Source: an uncultured Candidatus Saccharibacteria bacterium
GTDB taxonomy: Bacteria; Patescibacteriota; Minisyncoccia; Minisyncoccales; GWA2-38-27
DNA: 64,000 nucleotides
NCBI GenBank assembly: GCA_964394985.1
Contig: CAYMZK010000001.1
Span: 63,957-127,956 of the forward strand
Reading direction: 5' to 3'
In this document: piece by piece, positions 16,869 to 60,501 of the stretch
Layout: every line of letters starts with the position of its first letter
Position numbering within the stretch: the first letter of the stretch is position 1
Notes under the pieces: model-generated
What the model saw: the letters and a program-made list of their open reading frames with translations, nothing else
Databases searched by the model: none
Told to the model about the DNA's origin: nothing
Position numbers and translations under genes: made by a program

Positions 16869-16902
<34 letters not shown>

Positions 16903-17624: not shown

Positions 17625-18117
17625 GATATTGCCTTAATATTTTATTGTCCTCAAGTATATTGTACCATTTGAATCTTAGGACTGTAAAGATTAATGGTCA
17701 CTGCAACAATAAAACAATGAAGGTTTCATCGTTATTAGTCGGTTTGTCATCATAGATTGCTCTATGAAGTAGCAATTTCTTACTAAGACCAACTCCACTC
17801 AAGATTCGACGCCTGCAGTAGATAGGGACCAACCTGTCTCACGACGGTCTGACATATTAATCTTGTATTACTACAAGTACGGACTATATCTTTCCTTTTT
17901 TACAAGGACTAGCGTATTGTAATAGTTTGTACCTATTACCTCGTTTTAAAAAACTCAGTCTCTACGGGGACAAATTTATATCTCATTGAATCTGGGATAT
18001 AGAAAATTGTCTTCCCACGATATCATCCATTATTTCATTATATCATGAAATAATTAGGACTTCACCGTTATTAGCTAGTTTTATCTGGGCTCATGTTCAC
18101 TTACCCAGCTCGCGTGA

Positions 18118-18150
<33 letters not shown>

Positions 18151-19046: not shown

Positions 19047-19511
19047 CTATATCTTCATCTCATTAAAAGAATCAAGAATCTTCTTTTTGTTGTATATTCG
19101 TTTTCCAGAAGAATTCATTACAGATACTAAATCCATAATTTCGATTATCCCTTTTTTAGTTAAATGATCTCCGTTTTTCATCTTTCGGCAAATAATTTCA
19201 AAAGTTTCAAAATCTTTTTGCTTGCTAGATAATAATGGATATCTTTTAAAATGGGGGATAATTTTTGTTAATAGAGCATTAAGATTTCTCGTTTCAAATT
19301 TTAAAGTTTTATCACAAACATTTTTTCTGATAAAGCCACACTTGAAATAATTTTTAATTAATCTTAATACTTCTGCTCTATTTTCATTTTGAGCTACTGA
19401 AAAACCAGCTACAACTTCCCAACGAAGTTTATTCTTATTTCGCGGACGAATAGAGACGCAAAAGCATCCCTCTCCATCTATATATCCGCTAATATATGAT
19501 TCTAAATTCAT
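19047..19511 (-). CDS. intron-encoded LAGLIDADG homing endonuclease
   Basis: YISGYIDGEGCFCVSI motif; located inside the 23S gene. Confidence 0.8.
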   Translation of the reverse strand: MNLESYISGYIDGEGCFCVSIRPRNKNKLRWEVVAGFSVAQNENRAEVLRLIKNYFKCGFIRKNVCDKTLKFETRNLNALLTKIIPHFKRYPLLSSKQKDFETFEIICRKMKNGDHLTKKGIIEIMDLVSVMNSSGKRIYNKKKILDSFNEMKI

Positions 19512-19844
19512 AATAAGAGTCGGCGTTTTATGATGGTTAATTTACTCCCCACCATCTTAACTAGATAGTTAAAGTCGTTACGGGGTCATTTAAGACTTCC
19601 CACGGTATTACCCATTACTTTATTATACCATAAAATAATTAGGGCTTCACCGTTATAAGCCGAATTCCTACTAGAAATCACTTTCTAGACAGGCAATTTC
19701 TTACCTGGCAAGAGATTACGCTACCTTTGGACGGTTATAGTTCATATACCGTATTTCCCTATATCGCTATAAGGCTTGGACTATATCTTCACCCACTCCC
19801 GTGATGGGAGTTAGGGGCTTGACGTGTAGTCTCTGAGGATTCTT

Positions 19845-20360
19845 CTAATAAGAGCTCAAGATTTGTTTCTTGGAGTATTTCCGTTCTCGGCCGACTAGGA
19901 TAAGATCTCTTAACTTTAAGATTTCTTCCATGCCGGTTTTTTTGAGATGTCTCTTCTTTTTAAGTATGTCTGTGATTTTACAAAAAACTTCAAACACTTT
20001 TTTCTTATTCTCTGATAACAGAGGATAATTTCTGAAAAAAGGAATGACAATTTTTATAATATCTTCCAGTTTTCTTGTTTCAAAATAACATATCCCATCC
20101 TTACGATAACGAATTGTTCCACAATTTAAGAATTTCTTAAATATTTCAGGAACCGTATCGTCTTTCTGAGAAATATTGAACGATAATGAAACCTTCCATC
20201 CATACCTATAATCATCTCTTTTGATTAGAGAGACATTAAAACTTCCTTCTCCATCCGCAAATCCACTCAAATAATAACCGAGGCTCTTACTAGCAGTCTT
20301 TCCTGCTGATTGTCCGCAATTGTACATTTTCACTGCCATAATCTTACTATTATTATACAA
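19845..20360 (-). CDS. intron-encoded LAGLIDADG homing endonuclease
   Basis: YLSGFADGEGSFNVSL motif; located inside the 23S gene. Confidence 0.8.
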   Translation of the reverse strand: MYNNSKIMAVKMYNCGQSAGKTASKSLGYYLSGFADGEGSFNVSLIKRDDYRYGWKVSLSFNISQKDDTVPEIFKKFLNCGTIRYRKDGICYFETRKLEDIIKIVIPFFRNYPLLSENKKKVFEVFCKITDILKKKRHLKKTGMEEILKLRDLILVGRERKYSKKQILSSY

Positions 20361-21822
20361 GATAACGGCGAGTAGTACAATATGCCCGGAGTTTCCAGCA
20401 TATGGTCAAGTTATTTTTTCTAAGAATTACTTCTTAGTGCGGCAACTTTCTTACCGCCGACGTTCACTGGCGCTTCGAGCAGTCAGCCCAAGTGATAAAT
20501 CACTAGGACCGCCACTGTTAACGTTCCAGCACTGGTCAGGCCTCAACCCCTATACATCTTCTTACGAATTAAGCAGGGATCTGTGTTTTTGATAAACAGT
20601 CGCCAGAGGTCTTTCGCTGCGGCCTCGCTTAAGCGAGGCAAGGCATATCCCGAAGTTACGCCTGCTGTTTTGCCGAGTTCCTTCAAGAACTTTCACTCGT
20701 TCACCTTAGTACACTAATACCAACCCACCTGTGTCGGTTTGCGGTACGGATTTCATATCCCTAACTTTTAAGAACTTTTCCAGGTAGCTTGATCACACAA
20801 GTTTGCTTCATCCGAAGAATCAGCTCAACTGCAAATCCAATAATGCACCTTGTTTCACAAACTACGTCATCCTTAAAAAAAGATATGAAAGGGCCGGAAT
20901 ATTAACCGGCTGTCCATCCCTTACTACCCTTCGGTAGCAAAGTTAGGACCGCCTAACCCTTGGCTGATTGCCATTGCCAAGGAAACCTTGGGTTTTCGGT
21001 GTGCGGGGCTTTCACCCGCATTGCGGTTACTCATGCCAACATTCTCTCTTCTTAACGCTCCACCAAACCTCACGATTTAGCTTCAGTGCATTAAGAATGC
21101 TCCCCTACCGATTATTGTAAACAATAATCCCTTATCTTCGGCATATAACTTGAGTCCCGTAAATTTTTGGCGCAAAATTCCTTAGCTAGTAAGCTGTTAC
21201 GCACTTTTTGAAAGATAGCTGCTTCTAAGCTAACTTCCTAGCTATCAATGGAGTTTCACTTCCTTCAAAACACTTAGTTATAATTTAGGGGCCTTAGATG
21301 AAGATCTGGGCTGTTTCCCTTTCGACCATGGAGCTTAGCCCCCACAGTCTAACTGTTTGTAAACATTTTCCGGCATTCGGAGTTTGATTGGAAGATCCGA
21401 GCGAAAGCCCAAGAAATTCCATTCAGTGCTCTACCTCCAGAAAACTATATACAAATGCTAGCCCTAAAGCTATTTCGGGGAGAACCAGCTATTACCAAGC
21501 TCGATTAGCTTTTCACTCCTTACCACAACTCATCCCAGAGTATTGCACGGCTCAAGGGTTCGGGCCTCCTTCTATCTTTCGATAGAGTTCACCCTGGTCA
21601 TGGCAAGCTCGCTTGGCTTCGGGTCTTAAGCATTCTCTCAATTGTTCGCGCTTTTAACACTCGCTTTCGCTACGCCTCAATCCCGGAAGGATTCAGACAA
21701 AGAAAACACTTAAACTCGTTGGCTCATTCTTCAATAGGCACGCCATCACCCCGCTAAAAGCGGAGCTCTGACTCCTTGTAAGCAAAATGGTTTCAGGTAC
21801 TATTTCACCGCCCTCACCGGGC

Positions 21823-21862
<40 letters not shown>

Positions 21863-22602
21863 AGATATCGTAGTATTTAGCCTTGGCCGATTAGTCCGGC
21901 CTGTTTCCTACAGGGTTTTCTTTCCCCATAGTACTCAAGTAAAATAACAAGGAGCACGAATAAATTTTTAAGTACAGGACTATTACCTTCTATGGTCACC
22001 CTTTCCAGGGATGTTCCTCTAACCTATTCGCCTTTTTATTCTCCCTCGGCAAACATTCTATTTCCCAAAAAGAGAAATAGAATACTCCCGACGTTATTCC
22101 CTTACAACCCCACATTAAAAAATATGGTTTGGGCTTTTCCCTTTTCGCTCGCCGCTACTTGGGGAATAAAATTATTTTTCTTTTCCTCCGCTTACTGGGA
22201 TGTTTCACTTCAGCGGGTTCGCCATCCGACATACATCGGATTAATATGGGTTTACCATATTGCGTTTACGCATTCGGAAATCTCCGGGTCAAAGGTTGCT
22301 AAACACCTCACCGAAGCTTATCGCAGTCACGCCACGTCCTTCATCGCCTTGATATCCCTAGGCATCCACCATTTGCTCTTAATAATGTTGGCTAATAATT
22401 AATAATTGTAATTGCTAGACAGTATTCAATTGACAACGTTCTTACCCATTCAGGATAAATAAAAAACCGCTTGGGGAGCGATTATTCGGACATACTATAA
22501 AATTCAGACTATATCCTACTCCCTTAGTTTTTTATATTTTATTTTCTTTATCATTGCACTATCAATCTTAACAAAACCAAGAAAGAGTGTCAATAGCAAA
22601 AA

Positions 22603-22637: not shown

Positions 22638-23222
22638 TCAAGACCTACAAGACCTATCAGAAGCAATTAGCCAGCTGCCAATTGCTTTCCAAAAAGACAG
22701 AGAGAATAAATATTTAAGTCCGGCTGCTAGCCCGCATACTAGTCCGTATACTAGTCCAACTGCTAGTCCGTATACTAGTCCGGCTGCTAGTCCGTATACT
22801 AGTCCGGCTGCTAGTCCGTATACTAGTCCGGCTGCTAGTCCGTATACTAGTCCGAATGCTAGTCCGGCTACTAGTCCGAAGGCTAGTCCGAATGCTAGTC
22901 CGAATGCTAGTCCGAATGCTAGTCCGACTGCTAGTCCGACTGCTAGTCCGACTACTAGTCCGACTGCTATATTTTCATTATCCATAATCTTGCTGGTAAA
23001 CAACCAAACAAAAATTATAGAAAAGATGGGTCCTATGAGAATATCCCACCAACGGGAAACCTCAAAGGGGAGCTGAATAATTACTTGTTCGTTCCACTGG
23101 ATTTGAGCGACCGAAGGAACACTCCCAGCCACCAAATACCAGATTGCCCAAAAAAGAGCAATTAGCACTGCCGAAACCAGAGAGAATCGGCACATCATTG
23201 AAATCCTTCTTTCTTTTTCCAT
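22638..23222 (-). CDS. small membrane protein with (GLAx)n repeats
   Basis: N-terminal TM helices plus a GLAVGLAVGLAFGLAFGL... repeat. A terminator lies downstream. The plus-strand ORF 22612-23076, which encodes ASPYTSP repeats, is the mirror of the same repeat and overlaps the terminator, so the minus ORF is preferred. Confidence 0.45.
   Translation of the reverse strand: MEKERRISMMCRFSLVSAVLIALFWAIWYLVAGSVPSVAQIQWNEQVIIQLPFEVSRWWDILIGPIFSIIFVWLFTSKIMDNENIAVGLVVGLAVGLAVGLAFGLAFGLAFGLAFGLVAGLAFGLVYGLAAGLVYGLAAGLVYGLAAGLVYGLAVGLVYGLVCGLAAGLKYLFSLSFWKAIGSWLIASDRSCRS
22729..22960. repeat. 12/24-nt periodic tandem repeat (gctagtccg...)
   Basis: Seen directly: actagtccggctgctagtccgtatactagtccg repeated. 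Open frames exist on both strands. Confidence 0.65.
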
Positions 23223-25152: not shown

Positions 25153-25929
25153 TTATTTTTGAGAATTAAGTGTTGCACTTGAAGATTGAATGCAGCGTAC
25201 CTTTAATTCTATTCCAATAGGAATCTTTTTAAATCTATTGATTGTTTTTTGCTTTGTTAGTTCAGCTGTGGCCCTTCCTAATTTATCAGCTAAGATAAAT
25301 CCTGATTTTCTCTCAACGTGAGTAAGAATATGTTGTCTATCTTTTCCTAGGATAGTATCTCCTTCCCAGTCTCCAATTCTTGCCCTTTGATTTACAATCT
25401 CTGGTCGAGTATCAATTCTTCTCTTTTTAAGCTTCTCTCGCTCTTTCTCACGTATTCTAGTGCCATATCTACGTCGATACTTACCTTTTTGACATCTCAA
25501 ATATTTAACCAGATCTTTTCTTTCATTGTAGATATATTTGTAAATAGTATCTTTCCCAATATATTTCTTTTTATGGTTTTCATTCCATTTGCCAGCTATT
25601 TGATCCGGAGACCAATATTTCTTTAATTTCCTAATAATGTATTTTCTTAAAGATTTATCATTCTCTATCTTTCTAAATCTAGCATTAGCTTCAAGTCTTT
25701 TCTCTTTAGCTAATCTTTTAGATTTACTTACATAATACTTTCCATTTATTCCTTCTCCTCGTTTACGTTCTCGCCAGAGAGTAGTCCGACTTTTTCTTAA
25801 AAGCTTAGCTATTTCTTTCTTCTTTGCTTTAGTTCTTAACAGAACAGATAGCTGATTTTTCTGTTCTGGGGTAAAATGTTTGTAGGGCATGTTGTTTATC
25901 AAGTTAGTTATTAATTCCTTAATAATCAT
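25153..25929 (-). pseudogene. IS30-family transposase, C-terminally truncated (DDE domain largely missing)
   Basis: HTH region plus RIGDWEGDTILGK, an IS30-type motif. The protein stops about 40 aa later, so most of the catalytic domain is absent. The likely true start is MIIKE at 25929. The ORF-track extension to 26154 is hydrophobic junk. Confidence 0.65.
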
Positions 25930-25983
25930 TTTACTTGAAAACACTTGCCCTTTTAAGTTACCTTGATGTTTCACTTCGGAGTA

Positions 25984-26052
25984 GAATGTACCTACAAAAG
26001 ATTGACAAATCAAGAAAAAAGATGTAAGTTTGTATATTAACAGGAAATAGTT
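25984..26052. repeat. left copy of a ~65-bp inverted repeat (partner at 29072-29133)
   Basis: acaaaagattgacaaatcaagaaaaaagatgtaagtttgtatattaacaggaaatag matches the reverse complement of 29072-29133 with about 5 mismatches. Contains TTGACA-17nt-TAAGTT reading toward the flanked genes. Confidence 0.7.
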
Positions 26053-26098
26053 TCTTATTAAAAACAGTACTTTAACAAATAAATAGGAGGTATAAGCT

Positions 26099-26368
26099 AT
26101 GCAACGATCTTCAAAAGAGATTAAAGCACGGTGTGCTTGCATCCTCAGCAGCAAGAGTATTGTTACTCTTGTGGAAGCAAGCAGTAGTCCATCGGCTGCC
26201 TATGAGATGGTTTTTGCGGAAAGCAAAGACATTTTAATGGCAAAAGCTAGCAGATGGCTTGCGGTATTGCGTCGGAATTACCCCACCGAGTATCGTAGAC
26301 TCGTTCCAGCCCAACTCGGCCACGTCAGTAATGACACGGTACAGACAGAAAAGGAGACAAGGTTATGA
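26099..26368 (+). CDS. small hypothetical protein, translationally coupled to the PheRS-like gene
   Basis: AGGAGG sits 8 nt upstream of the ATG. The stop overlaps the next start (ATGA). GC-rich like the rest of the cassette. Confidence 0.4.
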   Translation: MQRSSKEIKARCACILSSKSIVTLVEASSSPSAAYEMVFAESKDILMAKASRWLAVLRRNYPTEYRRLVPAQLGHVSNDTVQTEKETRL

Positions 26369-27480
26369 AAAAGGAAGTCATGTCAGCAGAACGTCTGGAG
26401 GCCTCATTGGCAATACCAGACCTAACCGATCCCAAGAATGGGGTCCATGCCATCAATATTGTTGTCTATAACATTATGACGGCATTGCAGAGGGCGTATC
26501 CCGGAACGGCAGTTGAAGAAGTCCGACTGAACCCCGAGGTGTCCGTCAAAGAGAACTTCGACGACCTACTCTTCCCATCAGATAATGCTGGGAGGTCGTC
26601 TCGCTACACGAGATACGTCACCGAGAACACCGTCTTGAGAACCCACACTTCTTCCGCGATTCCGGGATGGCTCAAGAAAGTATCCCAAAACAGTGTCAAG
26701 GATACAATCGTCGTTTTGCCGGGTATGTGCTATCGCCGTGATGTGGTCGACAAGACACATTGTGGTGAACCGCACCAGATGGATGTGTGGCGAATCAAAT
26801 GTGGTCAACCACACTTCACCAGAAAAGACCTGATCTCTCTGGTGGAAACAATTCTTAACTGCATTGTTCCGGGTTGTGAATACCGGGCCAACGAGGTCAA
26901 ACATCCATACACCCTGAACGGCCTCGAGGTGGAAGTTTTGATGAATAGATCATGGCTGGAGATTCTGGAGTGCGGTGAGGCTCATCCAACCGTACTCAAA
27001 AACGCCGGTCTTGATTCGGAAGAATACTCCGGGCTTGCACTGGGCATGGGGCTGGATCGTCTCGTCATGATCATCAAGGGAATTGATGATATTCGAGTTC
27101 TGAGATCGGACGATGCGCGAATTAAAAGCCAAATGACAAATCTGGAGAAGTTCACCACCGTATCCGATCAGCCTGCGACCAAAAGGGTCCTCTCATATTC
27201 CACTTCGGTTGAAAAAACCGAGGAGGATATTTGCGAAGAAATTCGCGACGAGTTAGGTCCTGACGCTGTCTTTATTGAAAAGATCAAATACTCAGAGATT
27301 CCCTATGAACAGCTATCAGAGAAGGCTCGAACCAACCTTGGCATTCATCCTGACCAGAAAAATGTGGTGGCAACACTGACATTCCGATCGCTGAAAGGAT
27401 CTCTTCCTCGAACGATGGTCAACGATTGGATGCAACGTCTCTACCCGAAGTTAAACAGAGGGAGTCGAGGCTATATGTAA
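26365..27480 (+). CDS. PheRS alpha-like class-II aaRS paralog (catalytic core plus C-terminal FDX-ACB-like domain), divergent
   Basis: LRTHTSSAIPGW as motif 1. CYRRDVVDKTHCGEPHQMDVW as motif 2, with Pro replacing the usual Phe. GLALGMGLDRLVMIIKGIDDIRVL as motif 3. C-terminal ~100 aa resembles the ferredoxin-fold anticodon-binding domain. GC content is clearly higher than the flanks. Confidence 0.6.
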   Translation: MKKEVMSAERLEASLAIPDLTDPKNGVHAINIVVYNIMTALQRAYPGTAVEEVRLNPEVSVKENFDDLLFPSDNAGRSSRYTRYVTENTVLRTHTSSAIPGWLKKVSQNSVKDTIVVLPGMCYRRDVVDKTHCGEPHQMDVWRIKCGQPHFTRKDLISLVETILNCIVPGCEYRANEVKHPYTLNGLEVEVLMNRSWLEILECGEAHPTVLKNAGLDSEEYSGLALGMGLDRLVMIIKGIDDIRVLRSDDARIKSQMTNLEKFTTVSDQPATKRVLSYSTSVEKTEEDICEEIRDELGPDAVFIEKIKYSEIPYEQLSEKARTNLGIHPDQKNVVATLTFRSLKGSLPRTMVNDWMQRLYPKLNRGSRGYM

Positions 27481-27551
27481 TTGCCTGCTTATGCGGTAAA
27501 CTACATCATGAGGTTATGGACAAAAAATGTCTGTAGCCTCTTTTTTAATAT

Positions 27552-27585
27552 TAAAACCCCGTGTCAGTTTCCTGACACGAGGTTA
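27552..27585. terminator. bidirectional terminator between convergent aaRS-like genes
   Basis: aaaaccccgtgtcag-tttc-ctgacacgaggtt. Confidence 0.5.
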
Positions 27586-27587
27586 AG

Positions 27588-29036
27588 TTAAAATACTGGG
27601 AAAAGTTCGACATCCCTTATATCCTTTGCGTTAAGCAAAAGCATAAGAAGACGTTCCATCCCCATGCCAATTCCTCTGCAAGGAGGAAGCCCAAATTTCA
27701 TCGCTTCGATGATATCTTTGTTAATATCTCTATTCTGATCATCTCTGCGATAAGATAGCTGTTCCTCCATTCGGTGTTTGATAACCCTAGGATCACGCTC
27801 CGGGTTAACTAAGTCAGCAACCAGCATTCCATTAATTACAAGCAAGGTCTCATCGATAGTTGAACCATCGTCATTGACTTTGAAAAGCGGAGATTGGGCT
27901 GCCGGCAAATTTCTTAGAAAAACAGGTCCAGTGATGTTGGACATCATATGCGCATACAGTGACGTAGTCACTGTATACTTGTTCAACTTTGCGGGATGAG
28001 TAATTCCTGCTTTGTCTAGTAGATGCACGAGTTCTTCGATAGGACGTGATTCGTCATACCGGAGACCTGTGCATTTTTCGAGCTCATCATTAAAGTCACA
28101 TGATGGCCATTCGCCAGTGCAGTCAATCGACCCTTCAGTAGTTGGAATCGATATTGAACCGTAAAGTTGGACAAGAATTTCACATATCATGTCCCGCATC
28201 AGATTCTCCATTTCTTCCCTCGTCGCATATGCTCGATACAGCTCAAGAATCGTGAACTGGGGAAGCATGTCTGCAGTTGCACCCTGATTCCTGAATGATT
28301 TGCCGATCTCAAATACTTTTGAAAAACCAGCAATAATCAGTTTTCTAAGAAACAACTCGGACGTCAACCTCAGATACATATCCTTGTCATGTTCGGTCAC
28401 GTGCGTAACAAAAGGATCAGCCAACCCTGCTTCAAAGCTTTCCTGAAGCAATGTCATACTTAGCTCCTCATAGCCGTTGCTATAGAGGAACTGACGGATC
28501 ACTCTGAAGACTGTTGAACATTTGCGAAAGTGCAGAATCTTTTCTCGGTCTCGGATCATTTGAAGATGTCGATGAGCATACAAATTTGACCTCTTACAGA
28601 AATCGATATTGCTGTCATAGACATCTCCTGTTGCTTTGGAAAGTAACAAGACTTTCTCGCCAAGAAAAACATCGCCATTGGCTGTGCCAATCTTCACACC
28701 GTTCAACACCACGATGTCTCCATAATGAATCATGAAGTTTACCATGTTAATGTTTTTGGGTGTTCGAACAAGAAATGCCGGGATGGATGAACCGTTTCCT
28801 TCAATCCTTTCGAAATTGATGACTTCTTTGTCATACAGCTTGCTGAATACTCCGAGTTTGGAGATTTTACCAGTATTATCGGAAAGCATCAACCTCCCGA
28901 CAAGTGTAGCTCTTTCACCATTCCGAAGATTACCAAATGCATCGACTTCGATTGATCCCCTTGGTGCCTCGCGGCGATACGCAAAAGAATCATTTTCGAG
29001 GGCAAAAACCCTCTTTCTCTCGCTTTTTTTGGCCAT
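27588..29036 (-). CDS. class-II lysyl-tRNA synthetase-like protein with divergent active-site residues
   Basis: N-terminal OB-fold-like segment. The segment DMYLRLTSELFLRKLIIAGFSKVFEIGKSFRNQGATADMLPQFTILELYRAY aligns to LysS motifs 1/2; GLPPCRGIGMGMERLLMLLL..IRDVELFP aligns to motif 3. Several normally invariant residues are substituted. GGAGGTG SD. GC-rich. Confidence 0.7.
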   Translation of the reverse strand: MAKKSERKRVFALENDSFAYRREAPRGSIEVDAFGNLRNGERATLVGRLMLSDNTGKISKLGVFSKLYDKEVINFERIEGNGSSIPAFLVRTPKNINMVNFMIHYGDIVVLNGVKIGTANGDVFLGEKVLLLSKATGDVYDSNIDFCKRSNLYAHRHLQMIRDREKILHFRKCSTVFRVIRQFLYSNGYEELSMTLLQESFEAGLADPFVTHVTEHDKDMYLRLTSELFLRKLIIAGFSKVFEIGKSFRNQGATADMLPQFTILELYRAYATREEMENLMRDMICEILVQLYGSISIPTTEGSIDCTGEWPSCDFNDELEKCTGLRYDESRPIEELVHLLDKAGITHPAKLNKYTVTTSLYAHMMSNITGPVFLRNLPAAQSPLFKVNDDGSTIDETLLVINGMLVADLVNPERDPRVIKHRMEEQLSYRRDDQNRDINKDIIEAMKFGLPPCRGIGMGMERLLMLLLNAKDIRDVELFPVF

Positions 29037-29071
29037 AAGACACCTCCTCTGATTGGTTTGTTAATGAACTA

Positions 29072-29133
29072 TTTATAACAAAAACCTATTTCCTATTAAT
29101 ATACAAACCTACATCTTTTTTCTTGATTTGTCA
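29072..29133. repeat. right copy of the ~65-bp inverted repeat
   Basis: Reverse complement matches 25984-26052; sits immediately upstream of the minus-strand LysRS-like start. Confidence 0.7.
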
Positions 29134-29146
29134 ATCTTTTGTTGGC

Positions 29147-29686
29147 CTAATTCTTTTTAAAAATATCGTATTTAAAATCCTTGTATGTCATAGATGGACG
29201 CGGCCCAGTGCTATTTTGATATTTTCCCTCGTATAAAACTATGTCACCCAAGGGAACCCAAAAACTTACTTGGGCTATCAGCATGCCCGGGTATAACCTG
29301 ACAGGAAGAGTTGCATACAATTGGAATGTTGTAACTCCATGAGAGCCTATATCAATTAGGTCAGCGGTGACATGAACAAATAAACCCATTCTTGCCGTGC
29401 CAGATTTACCATGTATTAAGGGAACATAGAAATCACTACCTATACTCTCTCTGGAATGTCCCAACACAAAATCACCGGCATTAAGTACTAACCCATCCTC
29501 AGGAATAGTTATCTCTTCATAAGATGCTTGGCGTTTCGGATCAATTATGTCTTGTTTGTACCGAACAATTGTGTTTCCAAGTGATAAATCGTATGAATTA
29601 GTCGTTACACGGATTTTGTCAAATGGATCGATGTCAATTTTTCTTTTTTTAACTTCTACTATTATTTTTTTACCAGTGAGTATCAT
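29147..29686 (-). CDS. dCTP deaminase/dUTPase-superfamily paralog, probably catalytically degenerate
   Basis: Same fold signature as the upstream paralog (GMLIAQVSFW; HGKSGTARMGLFVHVTADLID). The conserved Arg/Ser of GRSS and the Glu of LEF are replaced (GKSGTAR; FQLYA). Confidence 0.55.
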   Translation of the reverse strand: MILTGKKIIVEVKKRKIDIDPFDKIRVTTNSYDLSLGNTIVRYKQDIIDPKRQASYEEITIPEDGLVLNAGDFVLGHSRESIGSDFYVPLIHGKSGTARMGLFVHVTADLIDIGSHGVTTFQLYATLPVRLYPGMLIAQVSFWVPLGDIVLYEGKYQNSTGPRPSMTYKDFKYDIFKKN

Positions 29687-30201
29687 ATACTTTGGTGTTT
29701 GATTAACGGTACGTAAGATTCTTGTGGGTGATTGAGATGTCCATATCTTCCGTCATATTTTCTCACTGTTCCAAAATTCTTCCAGAAAGATACCTGCCCA
29801 ATGATCATTCCTGGGTATAATTTAATTGGTATTGCGGCAACAATTTCCAATGTCCATTTATGCTCGGAAGTCGTATGACCAAGATTGGCTGATGCCTGCA
29901 AAAATAAACCGTATCTACCCATAGAGCTTCTTCCGATTAGAGACATAGCATATTTTGAACTGCCAATCACTTCTTTGGTGGTAGCCAGGTACATTTTTCT
30001 TGGTTCCAAAACATACCCATCTTCGGGCATTTTTACTTCCTTAAATAGAGCTTTTTTACCATCAAACCCATTAAAGACCTTAATAGTTGAATCGAGTCGG
30101 TAATTGTAACTATTTGGATTAACCTGATTTTGGGAAAACGGCTCAATAACAATATTTCTAGAATTAATCTCTTCTTTGATTTTACTTCCGGTTAAAATCA
30201 T
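29683..30201 (-). CDS. dCTP deaminase (Dcd) family protein
   Basis: MILTGSKIKEE...IEPF N-terminus. GRSSMGRYGL, TLEIVAA and PGMIIGQVSFW align to the Dcd catalytic region. 4-nt overlap with the next gene. Confidence 0.65.
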   Translation of the reverse strand: MILTGSKIKEEINSRNIVIEPFSQNQVNPNSYNYRLDSTIKVFNGFDGKKALFKEVKMPEDGYVLEPRKMYLATTKEVIGSSKYAMSLIGRSSMGRYGLFLQASANLGHTTSEHKWTLEIVAAIPIKLYPGMIIGQVSFWKNFGTVRKYDGRYGHLNHPQESYVPLIKHQSI

Positions 30202-33536: not shown

Positions 33537-33848
33537 TTATTTTACTTCAATTATCGGTTCCGTATTTATTGGATAGCAGTAGCTAAGTTTAATTTCCACG
33601 TATTCGCCTTCAAGATTTTTTGCTTTCGCTATAACTATTGTCGTGCTACTACTAACCCACACATCTTGATCACGGTTACTTTTTGTCTCTTTATTGATAA
33701 TTTCTATGTCAGTATATCCTTTTTCTTGAAGAGTTTTTATTACATTGGGCTCATCTGGAATACTAGCCACGAAAGAAACAATAAAAAACACAAAGATAAT
33801 CAAAATAATCACACCAGATAATACTTTACGCATAATCATCCCTTTCAA
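33537..33848 (-). CDS. hypothetical membrane-anchored small protein
   Basis: N-terminal TM helix; 103 aa. Confidence 0.4.
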   Translation of the reverse strand: MKGMIMRKVLSGVIILIIFVFFIVSFVASIPDEPNVIKTLQEKGYTDIEIINKETKSNRDQDVWVSSSTTIVIAKAKNLEGEYVEIKLSYCYPINTEPIIEVK

Positions 33849-33862
33849 TTATTAAATTGTTA

Positions 33863-34043
33863 AAACTGAGAAATCTCAGCACTGTCTGCACTATAGCAAT
33901 AATTATCTCAAAAGTCAAATTTCTGTACTAGTCCATATGATATGATACACCAAAAGACCCTTGAAAAACATAAAGACCGACGCATCGAAGACCATCTTCG
34001 ACACATAGTTCAGTTAAATGTATGAAGGTTCAACCTTCATACT
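33863..34043. repeat. copy 1 of a ~180-bp intergenic repeat (identical copy at 53688-53868)
   Basis: Identical read-through ttaaaactgagaaatctcagcactgtctgcactatagc...gtatgaaggttcaaccttcata. Three internal palindromes: ctgagaaatctcag, tcgaagaccatcttcga, tatgaaggttcaaccttcata. Confidence 0.8.
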
Positions 34044-34315
34044 AAAAATAGTCCCATGGATCGGTCAATCGAACAAAATCAGATGTGTAATATCTATCTG
34101 AACCTAGTTCTGAATCTAGACACCCCTCGTTAGGTTGCTCGGCCAAGCCGAGCAACCTAGTTACAAACGTAAGAAACTAACTAAGTGTATCATACGTATC
34201 TGAACCTAGACATTACTTTCTTGTGGTTATGCTAAAAATTTGCCATAATAGCTAGTATAAATATCTTCTTAAAAAGAGCGATCGTTTTACTAATTAAGCG
34301 GTCTGAAAAGTATTA

Positions 34316-35458
34316 TTATCGTAAGATCGCATTTAAGTCCTTTTTTGTTTTCTCGCGGATTCTATCCTGAATTTTATTGATTTCCTCGCTAGTCAAAGTC
34401 CTTTCAAATGAACGGTACATAATCCGAAATGTATAAGATTTTTTATTTTTACCAAATTTATTTTCATCCTCATATTCGTCCAGCAACTTTACTTCTTCAA
34501 TTAAGTTGTCGGCAAAATCTCTTACAATTTCGTAATAATTGTTTATATTTATATCTTTATCGATTATAAAAGAAATATCTCTTGACGTTACAGGGTATTT
34601 ACTAACTTCTTCATACTTGCTATTGATGTCTTTAAACTGTTTGGTTATCCGCGGATCGTCCGACCATAAAATTCTTATATCAGGAATGCCCATTTTTATC
34701 ATGGCTAATCTGTCGCCAAACCCAAAGGCCCAGCCGTTGTAAATTTTTGGATCTAATCCAAAATTTTTAAGACATTGGGGGTGCACAAGACCAGCTCCAT
34801 TTACTTCCATCCATTCACCGTTAAATTTAATATCCATTTCTAGGCTTTCGGTTGTATAGGGGAATTTGTCAGGAATAAATTTCCATTCAATATCGGGACC
34901 AAAAATTCCTTTTGCTAGTTTAACCTGTACGTCTTTTAAATCTTCTTGTGTAATTGTTTTTTTTGACTTTTCACATATTAATAAACCATCAATTTGATGA
35001 AAAGCTGGGTAATGATTTCTATCAATTTCATCTTTTCTAAAAACAATCCCATAGGATAACGCTTTTATTTCTCCGTCCTTTTTTAATCTTTCTAAAACTT
35101 CTGAGTCTTTCAAATAAAAAGACCAAAAAGCTGTTGTGTGTGTACGCAAAAGATGAATATCATCTAAATAATAGGTATCTGTCTCTCGTCTAGCAGAATG
35201 GTTTTTTGGCATATTCAAAAGATCAAAACATTCCTCAATAGTTACAATTTTAGGAAAGTCAACAAGATCAAAATCTTTAAACATCGGTAGGTTTATTATT
35301 TGATCAAATAAAATTTTTACAGGAGATTTTTCTTTTTTTGTTAAGTCTGGAAGTGCTAAAAATCTCTTGATGCGCTCTGCCTTAACATCTTTTCTTTTAT
35401 TCAACTCTTCTAGCAAAAGCTTTTTATTCTTATTTTTTATTATAATTTTTCTATTCAT
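34316..35458 (-). CDS. PheRS alpha-like protein with C-terminal FDX-ACB-like domain (monomeric, mitochondrial-type architecture)
   Basis: HSARRETDTYYLDDIHLLRTHTTA as motif 1. YGIVFRKDEIDRNHYPAFHQIDGLLI as motif 2. GWAFGFGDRLAMIKMGIPDIRIL as motif 3. C-terminus YPVTSRDISFIID...KKSYTFRIMYRSFERTLTSEEINKI resembles the anticodon-binding domain found at PheT and mitochondrial PheRS C-termini. Short N-terminus without the bacterial PheS coiled coil. Confidence 0.65.
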   Translation of the reverse strand: MNRKIIIKNKNKKLLLEELNKRKDVKAERIKRFLALPDLTKKEKSPVKILFDQIINLPMFKDFDLVDFPKIVTIEECFDLLNMPKNHSARRETDTYYLDDIHLLRTHTTAFWSFYLKDSEVLERLKKDGEIKALSYGIVFRKDEIDRNHYPAFHQIDGLLICEKSKKTITQEDLKDVQVKLAKGIFGPDIEWKFIPDKFPYTTESLEMDIKFNGEWMEVNGAGLVHPQCLKNFGLDPKIYNGWAFGFGDRLAMIKMGIPDIRILWSDDPRITKQFKDINSKYEEVSKYPVTSRDISFIIDKDININNYYEIVRDFADNLIEEVKLLDEYEDENKFGKNKKSYTFRIMYRSFERTLTSEEINKIQDRIREKTKKDLNAILR

Positions 35459-35603
35459 GAATTTTTATTTATAATTTTATTTGAAAATCATTTTTCTTTT
35501 ATCCTTGTCACAACAAAAATATTAACGTTAAACACGGTACATTCAACTTATGAGTGCAACGCTTGGCATTAATGCATTAATATTAACACGACTATTGATA
35601 AGT

Positions 35604-35645
35604 TTCAATTCTTTTCTTTCCACTACAACCTCCCATGCTTTTTCT
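35604..35645 (-). pseudogene. remnant of a HAD-hydrolase gene 3' end
   Basis: Minus-strand translation AKEKAWEVVVERK matches the C-terminus of the HAD gene at 53865-54566 (AKEKGWEVVVERK); the nucleotide match is ~40 bp. Confidence 0.5.
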
Positions 35646-35776
35646 TTTGCCCACTAATTACCCGCCAAAAGGGGACGGCCAAAGGGGGACGCATCACTTT
35701 TAAACGGGGTTTTAGGCTTTTTGTATTTTTCCCTTAATTTTTCGGTTCAACTTCCCTACCTTCGTATTTTTAATTT

Positions 35777-41382: not shown

Positions 41383-44058
41383 CTATGTTTTACTAAAATT
41401 TTTCACCAATTCCTCAAAATTCTTCGGGGCGTATTTTTCATAGTCCTCTTGTTTGATATAAAGAGCGGTGAATTTAACTTTATTTTGTACGGAATTTATA
41501 TCATCGCACCATTGATAAAGGCGTTTTATCTTCTCTACATCGTCTAAGTCTTCTCGCCCTTTTGTTTCCACGATATAAATTTCCTTTTCGGAAACTTTTA
41601 CAAAAAAGTCGGGATAATAATCTTTGATATTTCCGTCCGCGTCTTTGTAATCAATCTTGAAATGCACCGCAAAATAATTTTTGGCGTAGGAAACTATGTC
41701 ATCGCATTCTTCAAGAAAATTGGCAAACTGAAGCTCAAAATAGCTGTCGCCAACAATTTTATTGAACACGCTCTTTTTCGGCACAATAAAACCTTGTTCC
41801 TTAATAACAAATGGCCTTGATTTGCTGATTTTTATGTAGTCTTTTATTTCCGCTTCGCCTTTATCAACAACAGTCAGATCGTTAATTTCTTTTTTGAAAG
41901 TTTCAATAATCGTTTTTGTCGCTTCAAGCTCCGACAAATTCCGCAAGATATTCAAGTCTTCTAAATCAACCTTCTTATCAAAAAGATGATTGGTTACAAA
42001 CTCTTTTACTTTTTCATACAAAATATCATGTCCACCAACTAAGCGAAGCTCTTTTCTGATTATTTGTGCAAAGTAACCAACAACACTTTGATAATTGGGC
42101 ACAAAATCACTATCAAGCTCAGTGGTATGCGTTACTTCACCAGAAGCTATGTCCCGAAAAACAATTTCCTTTTTTTCCTTTTCGCTAAATTCTTTTATTT
42201 TCAGTTTCTTATGATTAAAACTTGCGGTGTTAAGCTCTGAAATATTTTTATATTCGCGATAAATCCTAGGGGTTAAAATCGGGATTTGAATATCTAGGCT
42301 CTCAATATCTTTTTTGGTATTTTCTTTATCCACTTCAACCACCAACGGAGCTTTTGGCTCTGTTCCTTCGCCCATTTTCTTTTTCTCAAGTTCAACGCCC
42401 TCGTTCTTAATAGACTCTACAAAATCCATAAAAGCGTCCGTTCCAACCACGCTTACATATTCCGTAACATCTGAAGTTCTATACATACGCCTCAAACCTC
42501 GTCCCAAAGTCTGTTCCGGCAAGATATTGCTCTTTGACGAATAAGGACGCAAGCCGACAATCGTAGTTACATTTTTTACATCCCAACCCTCTTTAAGCAT
42601 TAAAACCGAAACAATCGCTTTGTGCGGGCTTTCCCAATTATCAATCTCATTTGAGGCTTTTCTAAGCTCTTTTAATTCTTCCTCTTTTTTACCTGTTACT
42701 GTTTCCGAAATCTCACCATTATTTTTTGTGTGAATAGTTAAAACAGCGTCTTTAAATTCTGGATAGGTATTTTGCAGATATTCATTTACGTCATCACAGT
42801 TTTTTGTGTCGTCGGTCATTACGAAAAATACCGCTTTCTTGCCGAGTTTTTTATGTTCATCATAAACTTTTTTCCATTCAAGATAACCGAGATGAATATA
42901 ATCCTTGTATTTTTCCGTGAACTTTGCGCTTTTATGTTCTTGTAATTTGGCACGACTGGCAGAATCTGGAAGCACAGGGTGTTTTACAACGTCCTGATAA
43001 ATTGCCTCAACGAGTGGATAATCAGAAATTGTTTGTACAAAAATTGATCCGTTGTTGTGTTTTGGCGTGGCAGTAACATCAATCTGTAAAGATAAAAAAT
43101 TGTCTTTCATCTTCATTCTGTTGCTAATGTCTTCAATTGACTTAAACCACGCCAAACGCTCATCGTGGATATGATGTGCTTCGTCGTTTAGTACCATAAG
43201 TTCATCAACATCCCTCACAATTTCACCAATATTAACTTTTGAGTCGCTTGTCTTGGCAACGGGCTTATCTCCCAAAAAATAATCCATTGTATTTTCATCG
43301 TCAAAACTTGGAATATTATCTTTGCTGTTATAGACGCGATGAATATTGGTCAAAAAAATGTTTCCGGTTTTGCGAACAGTATTTATGTCGTCCTGCATAT
43401 GAATAGTAATTTGGAAATCATCTTTCCAGTTTTGTCCGCCGAAACCGTTATCAGGCAAGATCGGATCATCATAAAATATTTTAAGCCCTGTAAAGTCGGT
43501 TTTGATACGATCTAACACAATAATATTTGGAGTGATCAATAAAAAGTTTCTTGCCAGTTTTGAATCTTCTTCATACATTTTATGGAAATAACTCCAAGCT
43601 ATGAGCAAGCTCATCACTTTTGTTTTTCCGCTTCCTGTCGCCATTTTAATAACCAACCTAAGCCAGTCTTCCGGAAACATACTTGAAGAAACCGCACCGG
43701 AGCTGTCATAGCGAATAAGATCATACTTATCTTTTACTCCTGCAACTTCATAGAGATAAATGACTGTTTCAATCGCTTCTCTTTGCGCGAAGTAGTATTG
43801 AAAATTAACCATTCCGTCCGGTGTTTCCGTTGGGTGTTCAGTTTGAAACCACCATTGCAATAAAGCACGAGAAGTATCACTTACGCCTTCATAATTATTA
43901 TCACGCCATTTTTTTATTTCTTGCCGTAGCGTATGCACAAGAGGCGGAAGCAGTTTTTCATACCCCTTTTCCCGCAATGCTTCATCAGCCGGAAACCAAC
44001 GGATTTTTGGGTCAAGTATTGCATGCGGTGATTTTGGAAAATTTTTATGTAGTGCCAT
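41383..44058 (-). CDS. type III restriction enzyme Res subunit (SF2 helicase-nuclease)
   Basis: Walker A MATGSGKTKV and DEAH box LNDEAHHIHD; 891 aa. Confidence 0.8.
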   Translation of the reverse strand: MALHKNFPKSPHAILDPKIRWFPADEALREKGYEKLLPPLVHTLRQEIKKWRDNNYEGVSDTSRALLQWWFQTEHPTETPDGMVNFQYYFAQREAIETVIYLYEVAGVKDKYDLIRYDSSGAVSSSMFPEDWLRLVIKMATGSGKTKVMSLLIAWSYFHKMYEEDSKLARNFLLITPNIIVLDRIKTDFTGLKIFYDDPILPDNGFGGQNWKDDFQITIHMQDDINTVRKTGNIFLTNIHRVYNSKDNIPSFDDENTMDYFLGDKPVAKTSDSKVNIGEIVRDVDELMVLNDEAHHIHDERLAWFKSIEDISNRMKMKDNFLSLQIDVTATPKHNNGSIFVQTISDYPLVEAIYQDVVKHPVLPDSASRAKLQEHKSAKFTEKYKDYIHLGYLEWKKVYDEHKKLGKKAVFFVMTDDTKNCDDVNEYLQNTYPEFKDAVLTIHTKNNGEISETVTGKKEEELKELRKASNEIDNWESPHKAIVSVLMLKEGWDVKNVTTIVGLRPYSSKSNILPEQTLGRGLRRMYRTSDVTEYVSVVGTDAFMDFVESIKNEGVELEKKKMGEGTEPKAPLVVEVDKENTKKDIESLDIQIPILTPRIYREYKNISELNTASFNHKKLKIKEFSEKEKKEIVFRDIASGEVTHTTELDSDFVPNYQSVVGYFAQIIRKELRLVGGHDILYEKVKEFVTNHLFDKKVDLEDLNILRNLSELEATKTIIETFKKEINDLTVVDKGEAEIKDYIKISKSRPFVIKEQGFIVPKKSVFNKIVGDSYFELQFANFLEECDDIVSYAKNYFAVHFKIDYKDADGNIKDYYPDFFVKVSEKEIYIVETKGREDLDDVEKIKRLYQWCDDINSVQNKVKFTALYIKQEDYEKYAPKNFEELVKNFSKT

Positions 44059-44059
44059 A

Positions 44060-44248
44060 TTATTTATTGTTAAGCAATTCTAATATCTGATCTTGTTGCT
44101 TGATAATTAATTCCTGATTCTGCTTGTTTTGATCAAGTAGCTCCTGGTTTGTTTTTTGTATCATCTCAATCGATTTAGTTTTTTGAGAATATTCTTTATA
44201 TATCGCAGAATTTATATGAAAAGAATCAATGATTAAAGTAGCTACCAT
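44060..44248 (-). CDS. small hypothetical membrane protein
   Basis: 62 aa with one TM helix; sits between mod and res. Confidence 0.3.
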   Translation of the reverse strand: MVATLIIDSFHINSAIYKEYSQKTKSIEMIQKTNQELLDQNKQNQELIIKQQDQILELLNNK

Positions 44249-44383
44249 TACTACTAAAATTACAATAACACTAAGTAAAATAAAATTTACATCTTTAAAT
44301 CTAGAGTCTGTCTCTTTTTTAGTTCGGGTGCGGTAACGCCTCCGCTCTCAGGTATTTCAATTTGTGGTCTCTCTTTTTCCATA

Positions 44384-44596
44384 TCAATATATTCCAGTTA
44401 TGACATAGATATCATTTTCCACTCTTACCTCTAAATCTCTACCAATTAACACGGATGAATTTATGCCACCAAAGGAAACATTATTAAATCTAGCGCCGGG
44501 CCCAAATTGAACACCGCCAATTCTTATGGTTTTTTCTTTAGACGAAATACTACCATCCGAATGTACATTAAAGATTTGATGAAAATTTATACGCAT
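44384..44596 (-). CDS. small hypothetical protein
   Basis: 70 aa ORF between mod and res. Confidence 0.3.
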   Translation of the reverse strand: MRINFHQIFNVHSDGSISSKEKTIRIGGVQFGPGARFNNVSFGGINSSVLIGRDLEVRVENDIYVITGIY

Positions 44597-44599
44597 ATT

Positions 44600-46750
44600 T
44601 TAAATATTAACTTCAATTACTTTCATTGTATCATTTCCAAAAATGTCCACGACTTTAACGGCAATTTTACGCCGTCCTTTCTCGCATTCGCGGGAAACGC
44701 TTTTCAGTTCAATGGAGCGGTCTTTTTTCGTTCGGAAAGACTGCCACTCATTCTCAAAAATATAATTTCCCGTCCACGCTTCCTCAATTTCTCCGTTTTC
44801 TTTTTTTACGCGGACAAGCTCTTTTTTACTTTCAAAATCAAAATCAACCGCCCAATAGTCAATCCAATCCGTCCATTTTTTAGTCAAAACCTCTCGCTTT
44901 ACAATTCCGTCTTTGTCTTTGGAAATTTTAATGATATTGCCTTGTTCAACTAAAACTTTATCAGAGCCTTTTTTGAGACTGGCAATAACATTGTCAACAA
45001 TATCCTGATTATAATAAACGGAAAAATCAGTCAGCTCTATTGCCACTGTTCCGGGTGTTCGCTTTCCGGCAGATTTGATATGCGGTTTAACTTCTATATA
45101 GCTCACATCATGAAATTGAATTTGATTTTTCTCAATCGCTCGCTTATCAAAAACTTCTCGTGGAATATGCTTAAGGGCTAAATCAATTCCTTTTGCTTTG
45201 GCTTCTTCCTGGATTTTCGGAAACAACCCCATTTCATATTCAAAAGAAAGAATATCAACTTTGGTGATCTGTTTTTCAATACACTCTTTGATTACTTCCT
45301 CTACAAAAAGCCGTGAAGCGGGTAAGTTTATTGGTCCAATAGCCACCAATCGCCCCGCTTTTTTAGCGGCAAAAGTTTTGAAATTATTTGTGCTTTCCGC
45401 TTTATACGCTTTGACAATCAGCTTTACAAAATCAGTTTCTTTTTTAGCAAGCTGTTTTTGCTTTTGTTCTTCTCGTAAGTCAGGATTGACACCAATATAA
45501 TGTTGGCGTTCGTATTTACCAAGGTTCAGTATTTCAAAGGCTCGGAAATCTGTTCCCGTTTTCTTCATTTCACGCTGGACGCTGATCATTCTTTTTCGCG
45601 TGGTGTGAATAGAAAATTTACCAAGATCAGAACCAATCCATTTTCTGCCTAGTTTTTCCGCAACAGCAAGTGTCGTTCCTGAACCGCAAAAAAAATCAGC
45701 AACAAGATCGCCCTCATTGGAAGAAGCTTTTATTATGCGTTCAAGGAGTTTTTCTGGCTTTTGGGTTGGATAATTAAGTATTTCTGGAGAATTAACAATC
45801 GTCTGAAAATTTGCTATATCATTCCACACGTCAGAAACGGGCACGCCTTTTGACTCATCCAAATAAACCCTTCTTGTTTTTGTTATGGGTTTATATCGCC
45901 TTCCGTCTTCATCAACTTTTGTAAACCTCTTTAATTGTGCCTCCGAATAGTCTTCAAATGGCTTGTTAAAAATTATATCTTCTGATGATTTAGAGTAGTA
46001 AAGAATATTTTCATGTCCTCTTACATAATTTTGCACCATACCTTTATATCCAGACGCAGCAGACATTGTCCAAACAATATTTCTTCTGAAATTATCTTTT
46101 CCAAAAACCTCATCCAAAACCAATCTCATATATCCACTAACGCGCCAATCACAATGCACATAAATACTGCCGTCATCGGCAAGTAAATCTTTCATCAAAC
46201 TTAGTCGTTCATAAATCATGGCGATAAAACTATCCGCACCCTTGCCCCAAGTGTCGCGATAAGCAAGCTCCTCCAATACATTCGGCTTTTTGGTTAGTTC
46301 ATCTTCGCCAATTTCCACTTTCATTGAAAAATCTGCACCCACATCAAACGGCGGATCAATATAAATAAGTTTTAGACCGCCTTCTTTTTCAATTTCCTCA
46401 CGCAATACACCGCTTTTTAAACTGGATAAAATAAGTTTGTTGTCTCCCCAAATCAGCTTGTTTGTCCAACCAGCAATTTGCCTACCTCTGTCATCAAAAT
46501 CAAAAAGCATTTGCTGGGCTTGTTTTTTGGTATCTTTTGTATTTTCCGCTCTTGGCTCATCAACCATTTCAATTGTTTGAAAGGGTAAGACAACATTAGA
46601 CACTTCAGAACTTTTCTCATTCCATACAAGCTCAACCTCTTTTTTATCCGCAAAAAGCAAAAAACGAAATTTGTCCGGAAGTGGCTTCCCGGATTCAATA
46701 TATTTGATAATATCTCGTTTCTCGTTTTCGGTTAGATTAATTTTATCCAT
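44600..46750 (-). CDS. type III R-M Mod subunit (beta-class N6-adenine or N4-cytosine DNA methyltransferase)
   Basis: Motif [12 protein letters not shown] precedes motif [25 protein letters not shown], the beta-class order. 716 aa. Confidence 0.8.
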
Positions 46751-60489: not shown

Positions 60490-60501
60490 AAGTTTACTTA
60501 T

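Follow-up and report, generated by a model that had tools for sequence, protein, structure and literature searches.

Gene and protein

The 64-kb stretch of contig CAYMZK010000001.1 analysed here, the whole of which we call the window, comes from a bacterium of the Patescibacteria (Candidate Phyla Radiation, CPR) and carries an intact gene for a single-chain phenylalanyl-tRNA synthetase (PheRS). The gene opens with ATG and encodes 380 amino acids (aa). We refer to this type of PheRS gene as WIN-type and to the clade that it forms as the WIN clade. Its parts are listed below, together with a putative promoter that overlaps the end of a HAD gene relic considered later.

34316-35458, reverse strand: WIN-type single-chain PheRS gene (open reading frame (ORF), Pfam, Protein Data Bank (PDB) match by sequence and fold, dN/dS)
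34634-35344, reverse strand: class II PheRS catalytic core, aa 39-275 (Pfam, motif columns)
34319-34603, reverse strand: FDX-ACB anticodon-binding domain, aa 286-380 (Pfam, residues mapped onto the human enzyme)
35580-35608, reverse strand: putative promoter TTGAAA-17-TAATAT with TG, 5' of the PheRS gene (consensus scan)

Pfam places tRNA-synt_2d (PF01409) at aa 39-275 (E 2.7e-54) and FDX-ACB (PF03147) at aa 286-380 (E 6.9e-26), the latter bearing out the C-terminal domain of about 100 aa described in the first-pass annotation. That annotation had also reported the loss of the N-terminal coiled coil of bacterial PheS, and indeed Pfam did not find the corresponding domain (PF02912) in the 380-aa protein, whose N-terminus is short relative to bacterial PheS. 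The closest solved structure by sequence is human mitochondrial PheRS, matched over both domains (E 2e-55). It is also the best match by fold, an AlphaFold2 model (pLDDT 78) superposing at full length on 5MGH and 3CMQ (TM 0.66 and 0.62, respectively); very-low-confidence segments are confined to aa 261-267 and 278-285, both in the inter-domain linker. The NCBIfam models all score below their curated cut-offs, SrmL (NF051887) being the highest at 256.4 bits against 300, followed by pheS_mito (TIGR00469) at 236.9 against 258.35 and pheS (TIGR00468) at 177.7 against 237.45. Homologues of the protein are annotated as hypothetical by NCBI.

An independent assembly (L003, from SRR7048227) contains an identical copy of the gene with the same upstream neighbour. 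At the gathering threshold, Rfam reports only 23S and 5S rRNA in the window, with no T-box or other leader near the PheRS gene, and no tRNA genes were found in the 64 kb.

Signature residues and anticodon reading

The active-site motifs of PheRS can be followed along the chain as HTT (aa 107-109), the motif 2 arginine R141, FHQ (153-155), FPYT (199-202), GAG (221-223) and GWAFGFG-DR (242-250, with R250 of motif 3), and these residues are invariant across a 30-sequence alignment of the family. The PheS catalytic motifs and the FHQ of the phenylalanine pocket had been recognised in the first-pass annotation, and both are present. In a comparison of alignment columns, class II motifs 2 and 3 and the residues of the phenylalanine pocket match those of canonical PheS and of the clade that contains the mitochondrial enzymes, apart from two deviations described below (Asp for Glu after FHQ and a one-residue deletion in motif 3).

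In human mitochondrial PheRS, Asp364, Phe366, Ser375 and Arg414 read G34 of tRNAPhe, and the substitution D364G abolishes activity (PMC7540514). A HMMER alignment identifies D327, Y329, S341 and R380 as their counterparts; all four are invariant in the 30 family members and lost in SrmL, a second PheS-like protein encoded in the window. By the alignment, the G34-reading tetrad of the mitochondrial enzyme is retained in the WIN-type protein. Residues of the pocket and of G34 reading are kept here and changed in SrmL, a contrast showing that the WIN-type gene has stayed under PheRS-type constraint. We consider that it very probably encodes a functional PheRS.

Distribution and age of the gene

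All close homologues of the WIN-type protein come from Patescibacteria assemblies. With one genome scanned per species, the gene was found in at least 64 GTDB Patescibacteria species at 54-86% identity. Carriers belong to the Nealson-, Staskawicz-, Taylor- and Moranbacteria and the Paceibacterota, with one complete 876-kb chromosome (OY969557.1) among them, and the gene also lies on the large contigs JBBTWE010000001.1 (702 kb), JAKAEA010000001.1 (549 kb) and JGI 3300029288 Ga0265297_10000012 (804 kb). Synonymous divergence (dS) from four homologues is saturated or nearly so (1.5 to infinity), and the ratio of nonsynonymous to synonymous divergence (dN/dS) is 0.04-0.06, as under strong purifying selection. 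The GC content of the gene is 0.31 against about 0.33 for the window, and among carriers it tracks that of each host from 0.31 to 0.42.

The gene also has a core-genome setting in its relatives. In 38 of 68 non-redundant loci gyrB lies immediately 3', followed in 13 by secE-nusG-rplK; other neighbours on that side are alaS, at a distance of 20 nt in L008, and valS, in L022 and L025. Sequence identity between genomes is higher for the WIN-type protein than for the GyrB encoded next to it in 32 of 33 pairs (medians of 71% and 55%, respectively), and lies close to that of NusG and L11. By these measures the gene behaves as an essential core gene, an old and vertically conserved resident.

The first-pass annotation had named a contaminant contig derived from a eukaryote or organelle as an alternative, and we considered a recent transfer from a eukaryote together with it. 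Such an origin would fit the human mitochondrial enzyme being the top match in the PDB, but it is extremely improbable. The window itself has a bacterial 23S rRNA gene with CPR-style intervening sequences, plus a 5S gene; the gene shares the composition of the window and has bacterial neighbours conserved in at least 64 Patescibacteria species; dS is saturated; and in the trees described below the protein never falls inside the eukaryotic clade (0 of 100 bootstraps) and differs from it in an indel. We therefore rule out contamination and recent transfer.

The pheS-pheT locus in relatives

The decisive comparison is between orthologous blocks of related genomes. In a canonical Moraniibacteriota locus (L157) the gene order is DUF333-secA-NUDIX-secD-secF-hyp-pheS-pheT-NDT-valS-Bac_transf-GT4-hyp. 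In L021 and L022 it is DUF333-secA-secD-secF-hyp-tyrS-[mini-beta]-[WIN-type gene]-valS-Bac_transf-GT4-hyp, where mini-beta denotes a stand-alone PheT relic of 142-169 aa consisting of domains B1-B2 (the tRNA-binding OB fold). The flanking proteins of the two arrangements are clearly related (SecA 73%, SecD 68%, SecF 71-73% and GT4 75% identity), and the mini-beta of L021 and L022 is a relic of PheT aa 1-150 at 58-59% identity. The pheS-pheT slot is thus taken, in these two genomes, by the single-chain gene and a truncated PheT. Such an occupancy is difficult to account for if the function did not pass to the single-chain enzyme.

Mini-beta lies 10-20 nt upstream of the WIN-type gene in four loci:

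L021, 9548-9976: mini-beta
L022, 9540-9977: mini-beta
L025, 2190-2699: mini-beta
L062, 1883-2314: mini-beta

Similar proteins are widespread in Moran- and Parcubacteria, where they form more than 100 clusters of 130-170 aa with 59-62% identity to the N-termini of full-length CPR PheT. Like Trbp111, CsaA and YtpR (PF01588), mini-beta is a tRNA_bind domain protein; unlike them, it begins with the N-terminus of PheT B1 (MKxxxNWLK), and it is 56-61% identical to residues 1-150 of the Moraniibacteriota PheT at the orthologous locus. The PheT-type N-terminus and this identity mark it as a truncated PheT and not an orthologue of Trbp111.

A further Patescibacteria contig (L078, 1-4903) has a canonical but fragmented arrangement, with three genes between pheS and pheT, one of them of the 23S rRNA IVP family. 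Its PheT is split into a 245-aa B1-B2 ORF and a 564-aa B3/4-B5-B6/7-B8 ORF, and could be an intermediate towards the stand-alone B1-B2 relic.

A second PheS-like protein in the window

The window encodes another single-chain PheS-like protein at 26365-27480 on the forward strand. This one is a true SrmL (NF051887, 400 bits), 33% identical to the WIN-type PheRS. The two have their size and two-domain layout in common. The pocket of SrmL is altered, however, to EPHQ, HPYT, ECG and GLALG, and its G34-reading residues are gone, whereas the WIN-type protein retains both; the two also form separate clades with bootstraps of 100% (SrmL) and 97% (WIN). We rejected membership of the WIN-type gene in SrmL, as its 256.4 bits lie under the cut-off of 300 and its pocket and anticodon-domain residues differ. 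Nothing relevant emerged from literature searches on SrmL, the "mystery ligase" and, for CPR, monomeric PheRS.

SrmL is preceded by a conserved 89-aa ORF (26099-26368, forward strand) whose stop overlaps the SrmL start (ATGA). It matches no Pfam family. At least 16 related contigs have it with 50-78% identity, and in all of them its end coincides with the start of SrmL; a partner or substrate protein is a possible product. Convergent with SrmL is a LysRS-like class II gene (27588-29036, reverse strand) that aligns along its whole length to LysRS models, with a score below cut-off (264 against 468), and is probably the real LysRS. The block formed by the small ORF, SrmL, the LysRS-like gene and a dCTP deaminase gene is conserved in 15 related contigs; in the window it spans 26099-30201, including 29147-30201 on the reverse strand.

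A 100-nt "inverted repeat" (25991-26090 and 29046-29145, 86%) is a shared promoter-leader (TTGACA ... AGGAGG), one copy being upstream of the operon of the small ORF and SrmL and the other upstream of the convergent LysRS-like gene, which suggests that the two are co-regulated. The first arm lies inside the N-terminal part of an ORF called as an IS30 transposase (25153-26154, TTG start), the true start of which is probably further downstream. We also considered the SrmL region as a foreign island, given its GC of 0.455, the nearby IS30 and the inverted repeat, and rejected this because the block is conserved in the 15 contigs and the repeat is a promoter-leader.

Is it the only PheRS of the organism?

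Compared with the canonical (alpha-beta)2 PheRS (TIGR00468/TIGR00472), the WIN-type protein has a homologous catalytic core (30-35% identity), a C-terminal domain homologous to PheT B8 and, in relatives, the same chromosomal position. It differs in having no PF02912, no separate beta subunit and none of the PheT domains B3/B4 (editing), B5 and B6/7, and in the fusion of its anticodon-binding domain to the alpha chain. It falls outside TIGR00468, lacking PF02912, scoring 177.7 bits against 237.45 and being accompanied by no pheT in the window.

Searches for canonical pheS and for the B3/B4, B5 and B6/7 domains of PheT, first with PheS/PheT pairs from three diverse bacteria and then with CPR-specific queries for both proteins, found none in the window or in 0.96 Mb flanking the gene in 68 loci; this sampled about 2% of each genome in regions of non-random synteny and is weak on its own. 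Within the window, Pfam searches of ORFs of at least 120 aa in three stretches and tblastn over the whole length revealed no other pheS or pheT. Among the best 120 matches listed, the contigs with canonical PheS (up to 559 kb) did not overlap those with the WIN-type gene (up to 876 kb) or mini-beta, which is supportive.

Several points weigh against this gene being the PheRS on which the organism relies. It scores under every curated NCBIfam cut-off, and no obvious Shine-Dalgarno sequence precedes its start codon. The FHQxEG motif has Asp in place of Glu, as do some sequences of the mitochondrial clade, and motif 3 is one residue shorter, a deletion specific to the Paceibacteria core of the WIN clade. 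There is no PheT relic near the gene in this window. SrmL, a PheS-like ligase of the same genome, shows that such paralogues can have roles other than that of PheRS. Finally, the absence of pheST from the rest of the genome is inferred.

The low scores, the small part of the genome sampled and the presence of a true SrmL would suit an accessory PheS-like paralogue, with a canonical (alpha-beta)2 PheRS being provided by genes in another part of the genome. Such a paralogue might be a PheRS specialised for stress or for resistance to inhibitors, or a ligase that makes Phe-tRNA or a different acyl product for a non-ribosomal purpose, as is presumed for SrmL, whose "mystery ligase" model gives the highest score here, and some Patescibacteria, including Moranbacteria, do have canonical pheS-pheT. 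We nevertheless think this improbable. An accessory gene would not be expected to hold the pheS-pheT slot of a syntenic block beside a truncated PheT, to be conserved at the level of ribosomal proteins and NusG in a core-genome setting, or to keep a PheRS pocket and G34-reading residues that SrmL has lost; nor does either canonical gene appear in the flanks. A role as the working, and probably only, PheRS of this Patescibacteria (Paceibacteria) lineage is the reading that we favour with good confidence. That the gene is the sole PheRS of this particular organism is, on sequence grounds, probable, and we hold it a little less firmly.

Relation to mitochondrial PheRS

For phylogeny we collected 246 homologous proteins at E < 1e-30 among 1.84 billion cluster representatives and built neighbour-joining trees of the catalytic core with 100 bootstraps; the trees are unrooted and deep relationships in them are tentative. 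The support values were:

WIN clade, including a protein from an Oligoflexia metagenome-assembled genome: 97
SrmL: 100
Canonical PheS: 100
Eukaryotic mitochondrial PheRS with short prokaryotic and viral single-chain proteins: 69
WIN clade inside the mitochondrial clade: 0
WIN clade with canonical PheS: 65

Two residues before GWAFG are deleted in the mitochondrial clade and kept in the WIN clade, SrmL and canonical PheS. With this indel and nesting in 0 of 100 bootstraps, the label "mitochondrial-type" of the first-pass annotation is right for architecture and mechanism, and for fold, and wrong for membership, as is also seen in the score below the TIGR00469 cut-off.

The likeness to mitochondrial PheRS (FARS2, 3CMQ/3TUP; MSF1; TIGR00469; "PheRS-M" of AARS Online) is extensive. 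Both are single chains with a class II core and a C-terminal, B8-like FDX-ACB domain, neither has the B3/B4 editing domain, and they share the phenylalanine pocket, the G34 tetrad (D, aromatic, S, R), the flexible linker and, as predicted, the fold over the full length. Unlike the mitochondrial enzyme, the WIN-type protein is bacterial and chromosomally encoded and belongs to its own clade. The insertion of about 33 aa that the human enzyme has between motifs 2 and 3 is absent from it, the two residues preceding GWAFG are present and motif 3 is one residue shorter; in some genomes it is paired with the stand-alone PheT B1-B2 relic.

As canonical PheS is monophyletic, a single origin of the fusion between the alpha chain and B8 is compatible with the unrooted tree. 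It is tempting, though decidedly tentative, to imagine that Paceibacteria and their relatives dropped the editing-competent heterotetramer, universal otherwise, for a single-chain PheRS without editing, that the alpha-B8 fusion arose once in prokaryotes or viruses and gave rise to the WIN, SrmL and mitochondrial-containing clades, and that the mitochondrial enzyme was inherited and not invented by eukaryotes.

One member of the mitochondrial-PheRS-containing clade is a 354-aa single-chain PheRS-like protein (P0133) encoded at 8001-9065 of L159, a 160-kb Logan contig from SRR32456865. The contig is packed with mostly unannotated genes on the same strand, with IF-1-like, dCMP deaminase and dNMP kinase genes among them, and looks like the genome of a large phage or virus.

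Proposed mechanism and significance

We propose a model where one polypeptide, predicted to act as a monomer, would do the work that other bacteria divide between pheS and pheT. The class II core (aa ~39-275) would bind ATP and phenylalanine and make Phe-AMP, and the ferredoxin-fold domain (aa 286-380) would dock on the anticodon of tRNAPhe, with Asp327, Tyr329, Ser341 and Arg380 reading G34. A rotation of the domains from a closed to an open state has been described for human mitochondrial PheRS, and the flexible linker (aa ~261-285) may permit the same here. Since PheT domains B3/B4, B5 and B6/7 are absent from the protein, post-transfer editing of Tyr-tRNAPhe should be missing. In one branch of the family, mini-beta may assist tRNA binding in trans.

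Among aminoacyl-tRNA synthetases PheRS is the textbook exception: in bacteria, archaea and the eukaryotic cytosol it is an (alpha-beta)2 heterotetramer whose beta subunit contains an editing site. To our knowledge, monomeric PheRS has been characterised only in organelles. If our interpretation is correct, a minimal form of PheRS supports the whole proteome of a free genome, and translation without proofreading of Tyr-tRNAPhe is predicted for these ultra-small bacteria. Pipelines for genome quality and phylogeny that count pheS and pheT as universal markers would be affected, and there would be prokaryotic relatives with which to test the unresolved origin of mitochondrial PheRS. The WIN-type sequences themselves are already public; our literature search found no paper that links PheRS with Patescibacteria, Parcubacteria or CPR in the single-chain sense.

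Flanks of the gene and the question of an insertion

The surroundings of the gene in the window contain duplicated and relic sequences:

33849-34041, reverse strand: 193-nt module, copy 1 (hairpin 34042-34020, terminator-like stem-loop 34006-33980, predicted sigma-70 promoter, leader)
53677-53869, reverse strand: 193-nt module, copy 2, between a HAD gene (53865-54566) and an NAD-dependent reductase/epimerase gene (52514-53650)
34084-34209, no strand: 24-nt direct repeats and three local TCTGAAYCTAG copies (motif not enriched window-wide)
34131-34159, no strand: perfect G+C-rich palindrome with 13-nt arms, ~160 nt 3' of the PheRS gene
35585-35650, reverse strand: HAD relic, last 22 codons (matches HAD aa 212-233, 64% identity, E 6e-4, tblastn)

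The first-pass annotation had seen here a 180-bp repeat with a second copy elsewhere, abutting the HAD gene there. The repeat is real, and its second copy is 99% identical (33849-34041 and 53677-53869, E 1e-95); its length is 193 nt, and at the second locus it extends over the final 5 nt of HAD (53865-54566). Read on the PheRS strand, it begins exactly at an 11-bp hairpin, which at the second locus includes the HAD stop codon. Copy 1 has a near-consensus promoter, TTGACT-17-TATAGT with TG (33918-33890), which would drive a small membrane-protein gene (33537-33848). The copies diverge just before the ribosome-binding site of each downstream gene. From the hairpin start, the promoter and this point of divergence, the repeat reads as a terminator-promoter module that serves two unrelated genes. 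At least four such intergenic modules with promoters are duplicated in the window, this one included; the further ones are 300 nt long (54556 and 60483), about 100 nt long (before the SrmL operon and the LysRS-like gene) and 62 nt long (50763 and 52412). We also looked between HD_4 and the HAD relic for a degenerate further copy of the 193-nt module and rejected it, local alignment being no better than for shuffled sequences.

The 300-nt repeat (54556-54855 and 60483-60782, 97-99.6%) stands upstream of the HAD gene and of a gene at 59515-60489. About 180 nt of it are 74% similar to an intergenic sequence of a different species (L016, 8654-8833), and beyond a promoter it may represent a small RNA or a conserved leader.

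A 40-bp remnant of the 3' end of HAD had also been noted on the other side of the PheRS gene. By blastn, the match covers 41 nt at 95% identity (35610-35650 and 53893-53933) and is part of the 22-codon relic listed above. Likewise, the direct repeats reported around a palindrome at the left junction were found, as 24-nt copies of 83% identity at 34084-34107 and 34186-34209. As a dispersed element, TCTGAAYCTAG was rejected (5 matches against 2.2 expected in the window). The palindrome at 34131-34159 is probably a terminator-like hairpin.

The 25-nt G+C-rich core of this palindrome, GTTGCTCGGC-loop-GCCGAGCAAC (34132-34156), recurs without change at 822-846, between convergent genes. Both copies are intergenic and 3' of genes, in an AT-rich genome, and have no U-tract; the hairpin may be a factor-dependent or bidirectional terminator element.

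None of the neighbours of the PheRS gene in the window is syntenic with those of any relative, and the window lacks the gyrB usually found 3'. Alignment to the closest relative (90% aa and 83% nt identity) is confined to the stretch from -21 to +31 around the gene; this relative has, in common with L007, L011 and L012, an upstream ORF that the window does not have. These comparisons show the flanks to be derived, rearranged in this lineage with a duplicate of the module and a HAD relic.

In this closest relative (L081, 1478-2128, reverse strand), the ORF that lies convergent to the PheRS gene has a C-terminus resembling that of SrmL (…VILRSHERSLRYEEANGIRDRLY…) joined to an unrelated, basic N-terminal part without a Pfam match, and may be an SrmL gene disrupted or fused by insertion.

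The first-pass annotation had explained the locus by insertion of a cassette of about 1.6 kb. Of this proposal the derived state of the flanks stands, and a cassette is not what the gene looks like: it is an ancient core gene of host composition, and a recombinase gene, terminal repeats, a target-site duplication and foreign composition are all absent. Put specifically, the model has a 1.57-kb segment (34042-35609), comprising the gene with its own promoter and hairpin, inserted or translocated into a duplicated junction of the HAD 3' end and the 193-nt module. In its favour, the relic and the module keep around the gene the order and orientation that they have at 53677-53933, where 23 nt separate them; the missing synteny, the absence of gyrB and the lack of the upstream ORF shared by relatives speak for it as well. 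We regard this event as plausible but rather unlikely, since the junctions 34041/34042 and 35609/35610 have neither a transposase or integrase nor a terminal inverted repeat or target-site duplication, and since the module, whose boundary coincides with its terminator hairpin, stands as a unit by itself and does not belong to a duplication of HAD. Moreover, the identities of the two tracts differ (99% against 95%, the latter decaying to protein-level similarity), which suggests separate events of different age, and similar promoter modules are duplicated elsewhere in the window. The assembly itself bears on the question: L003 ends at 34130, so that the junction of 34130 with the 193-nt repeat is not covered by a second assembly and a repeat-mediated mis-join is possible there. 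The local repeats do not reflect a recent acquisition of the PheRS gene.

Further observations in the window

The rRNA region (16604-22387, reverse strand) has a 23S gene that spans 4362 nt against a model of 2925 nt. LAGLIDADG ORFs lie within 23S at 19047-19511 and 19845-20360 and between 5S and 23S at 17112-17624, and a 69-nt repeat present three times (18006, 18341 and 19591) probably marks intron or intervening-sequence boundaries. Elsewhere, a tandem array with a 12-nt period (22693-22992) is contained in an ORF at 22638-23222, and long 18-nt repeats of GS/PE type (10732-11403) lie inside a 1208-aa lamin-tail-domain protein (8923-12549). At 41383-46750 on the reverse strand, a type III restriction-like helicase/endonuclease (891 aa) adjoins an N6/N4 DNA methylase (716 aa), the two forming a restriction-modification pair.

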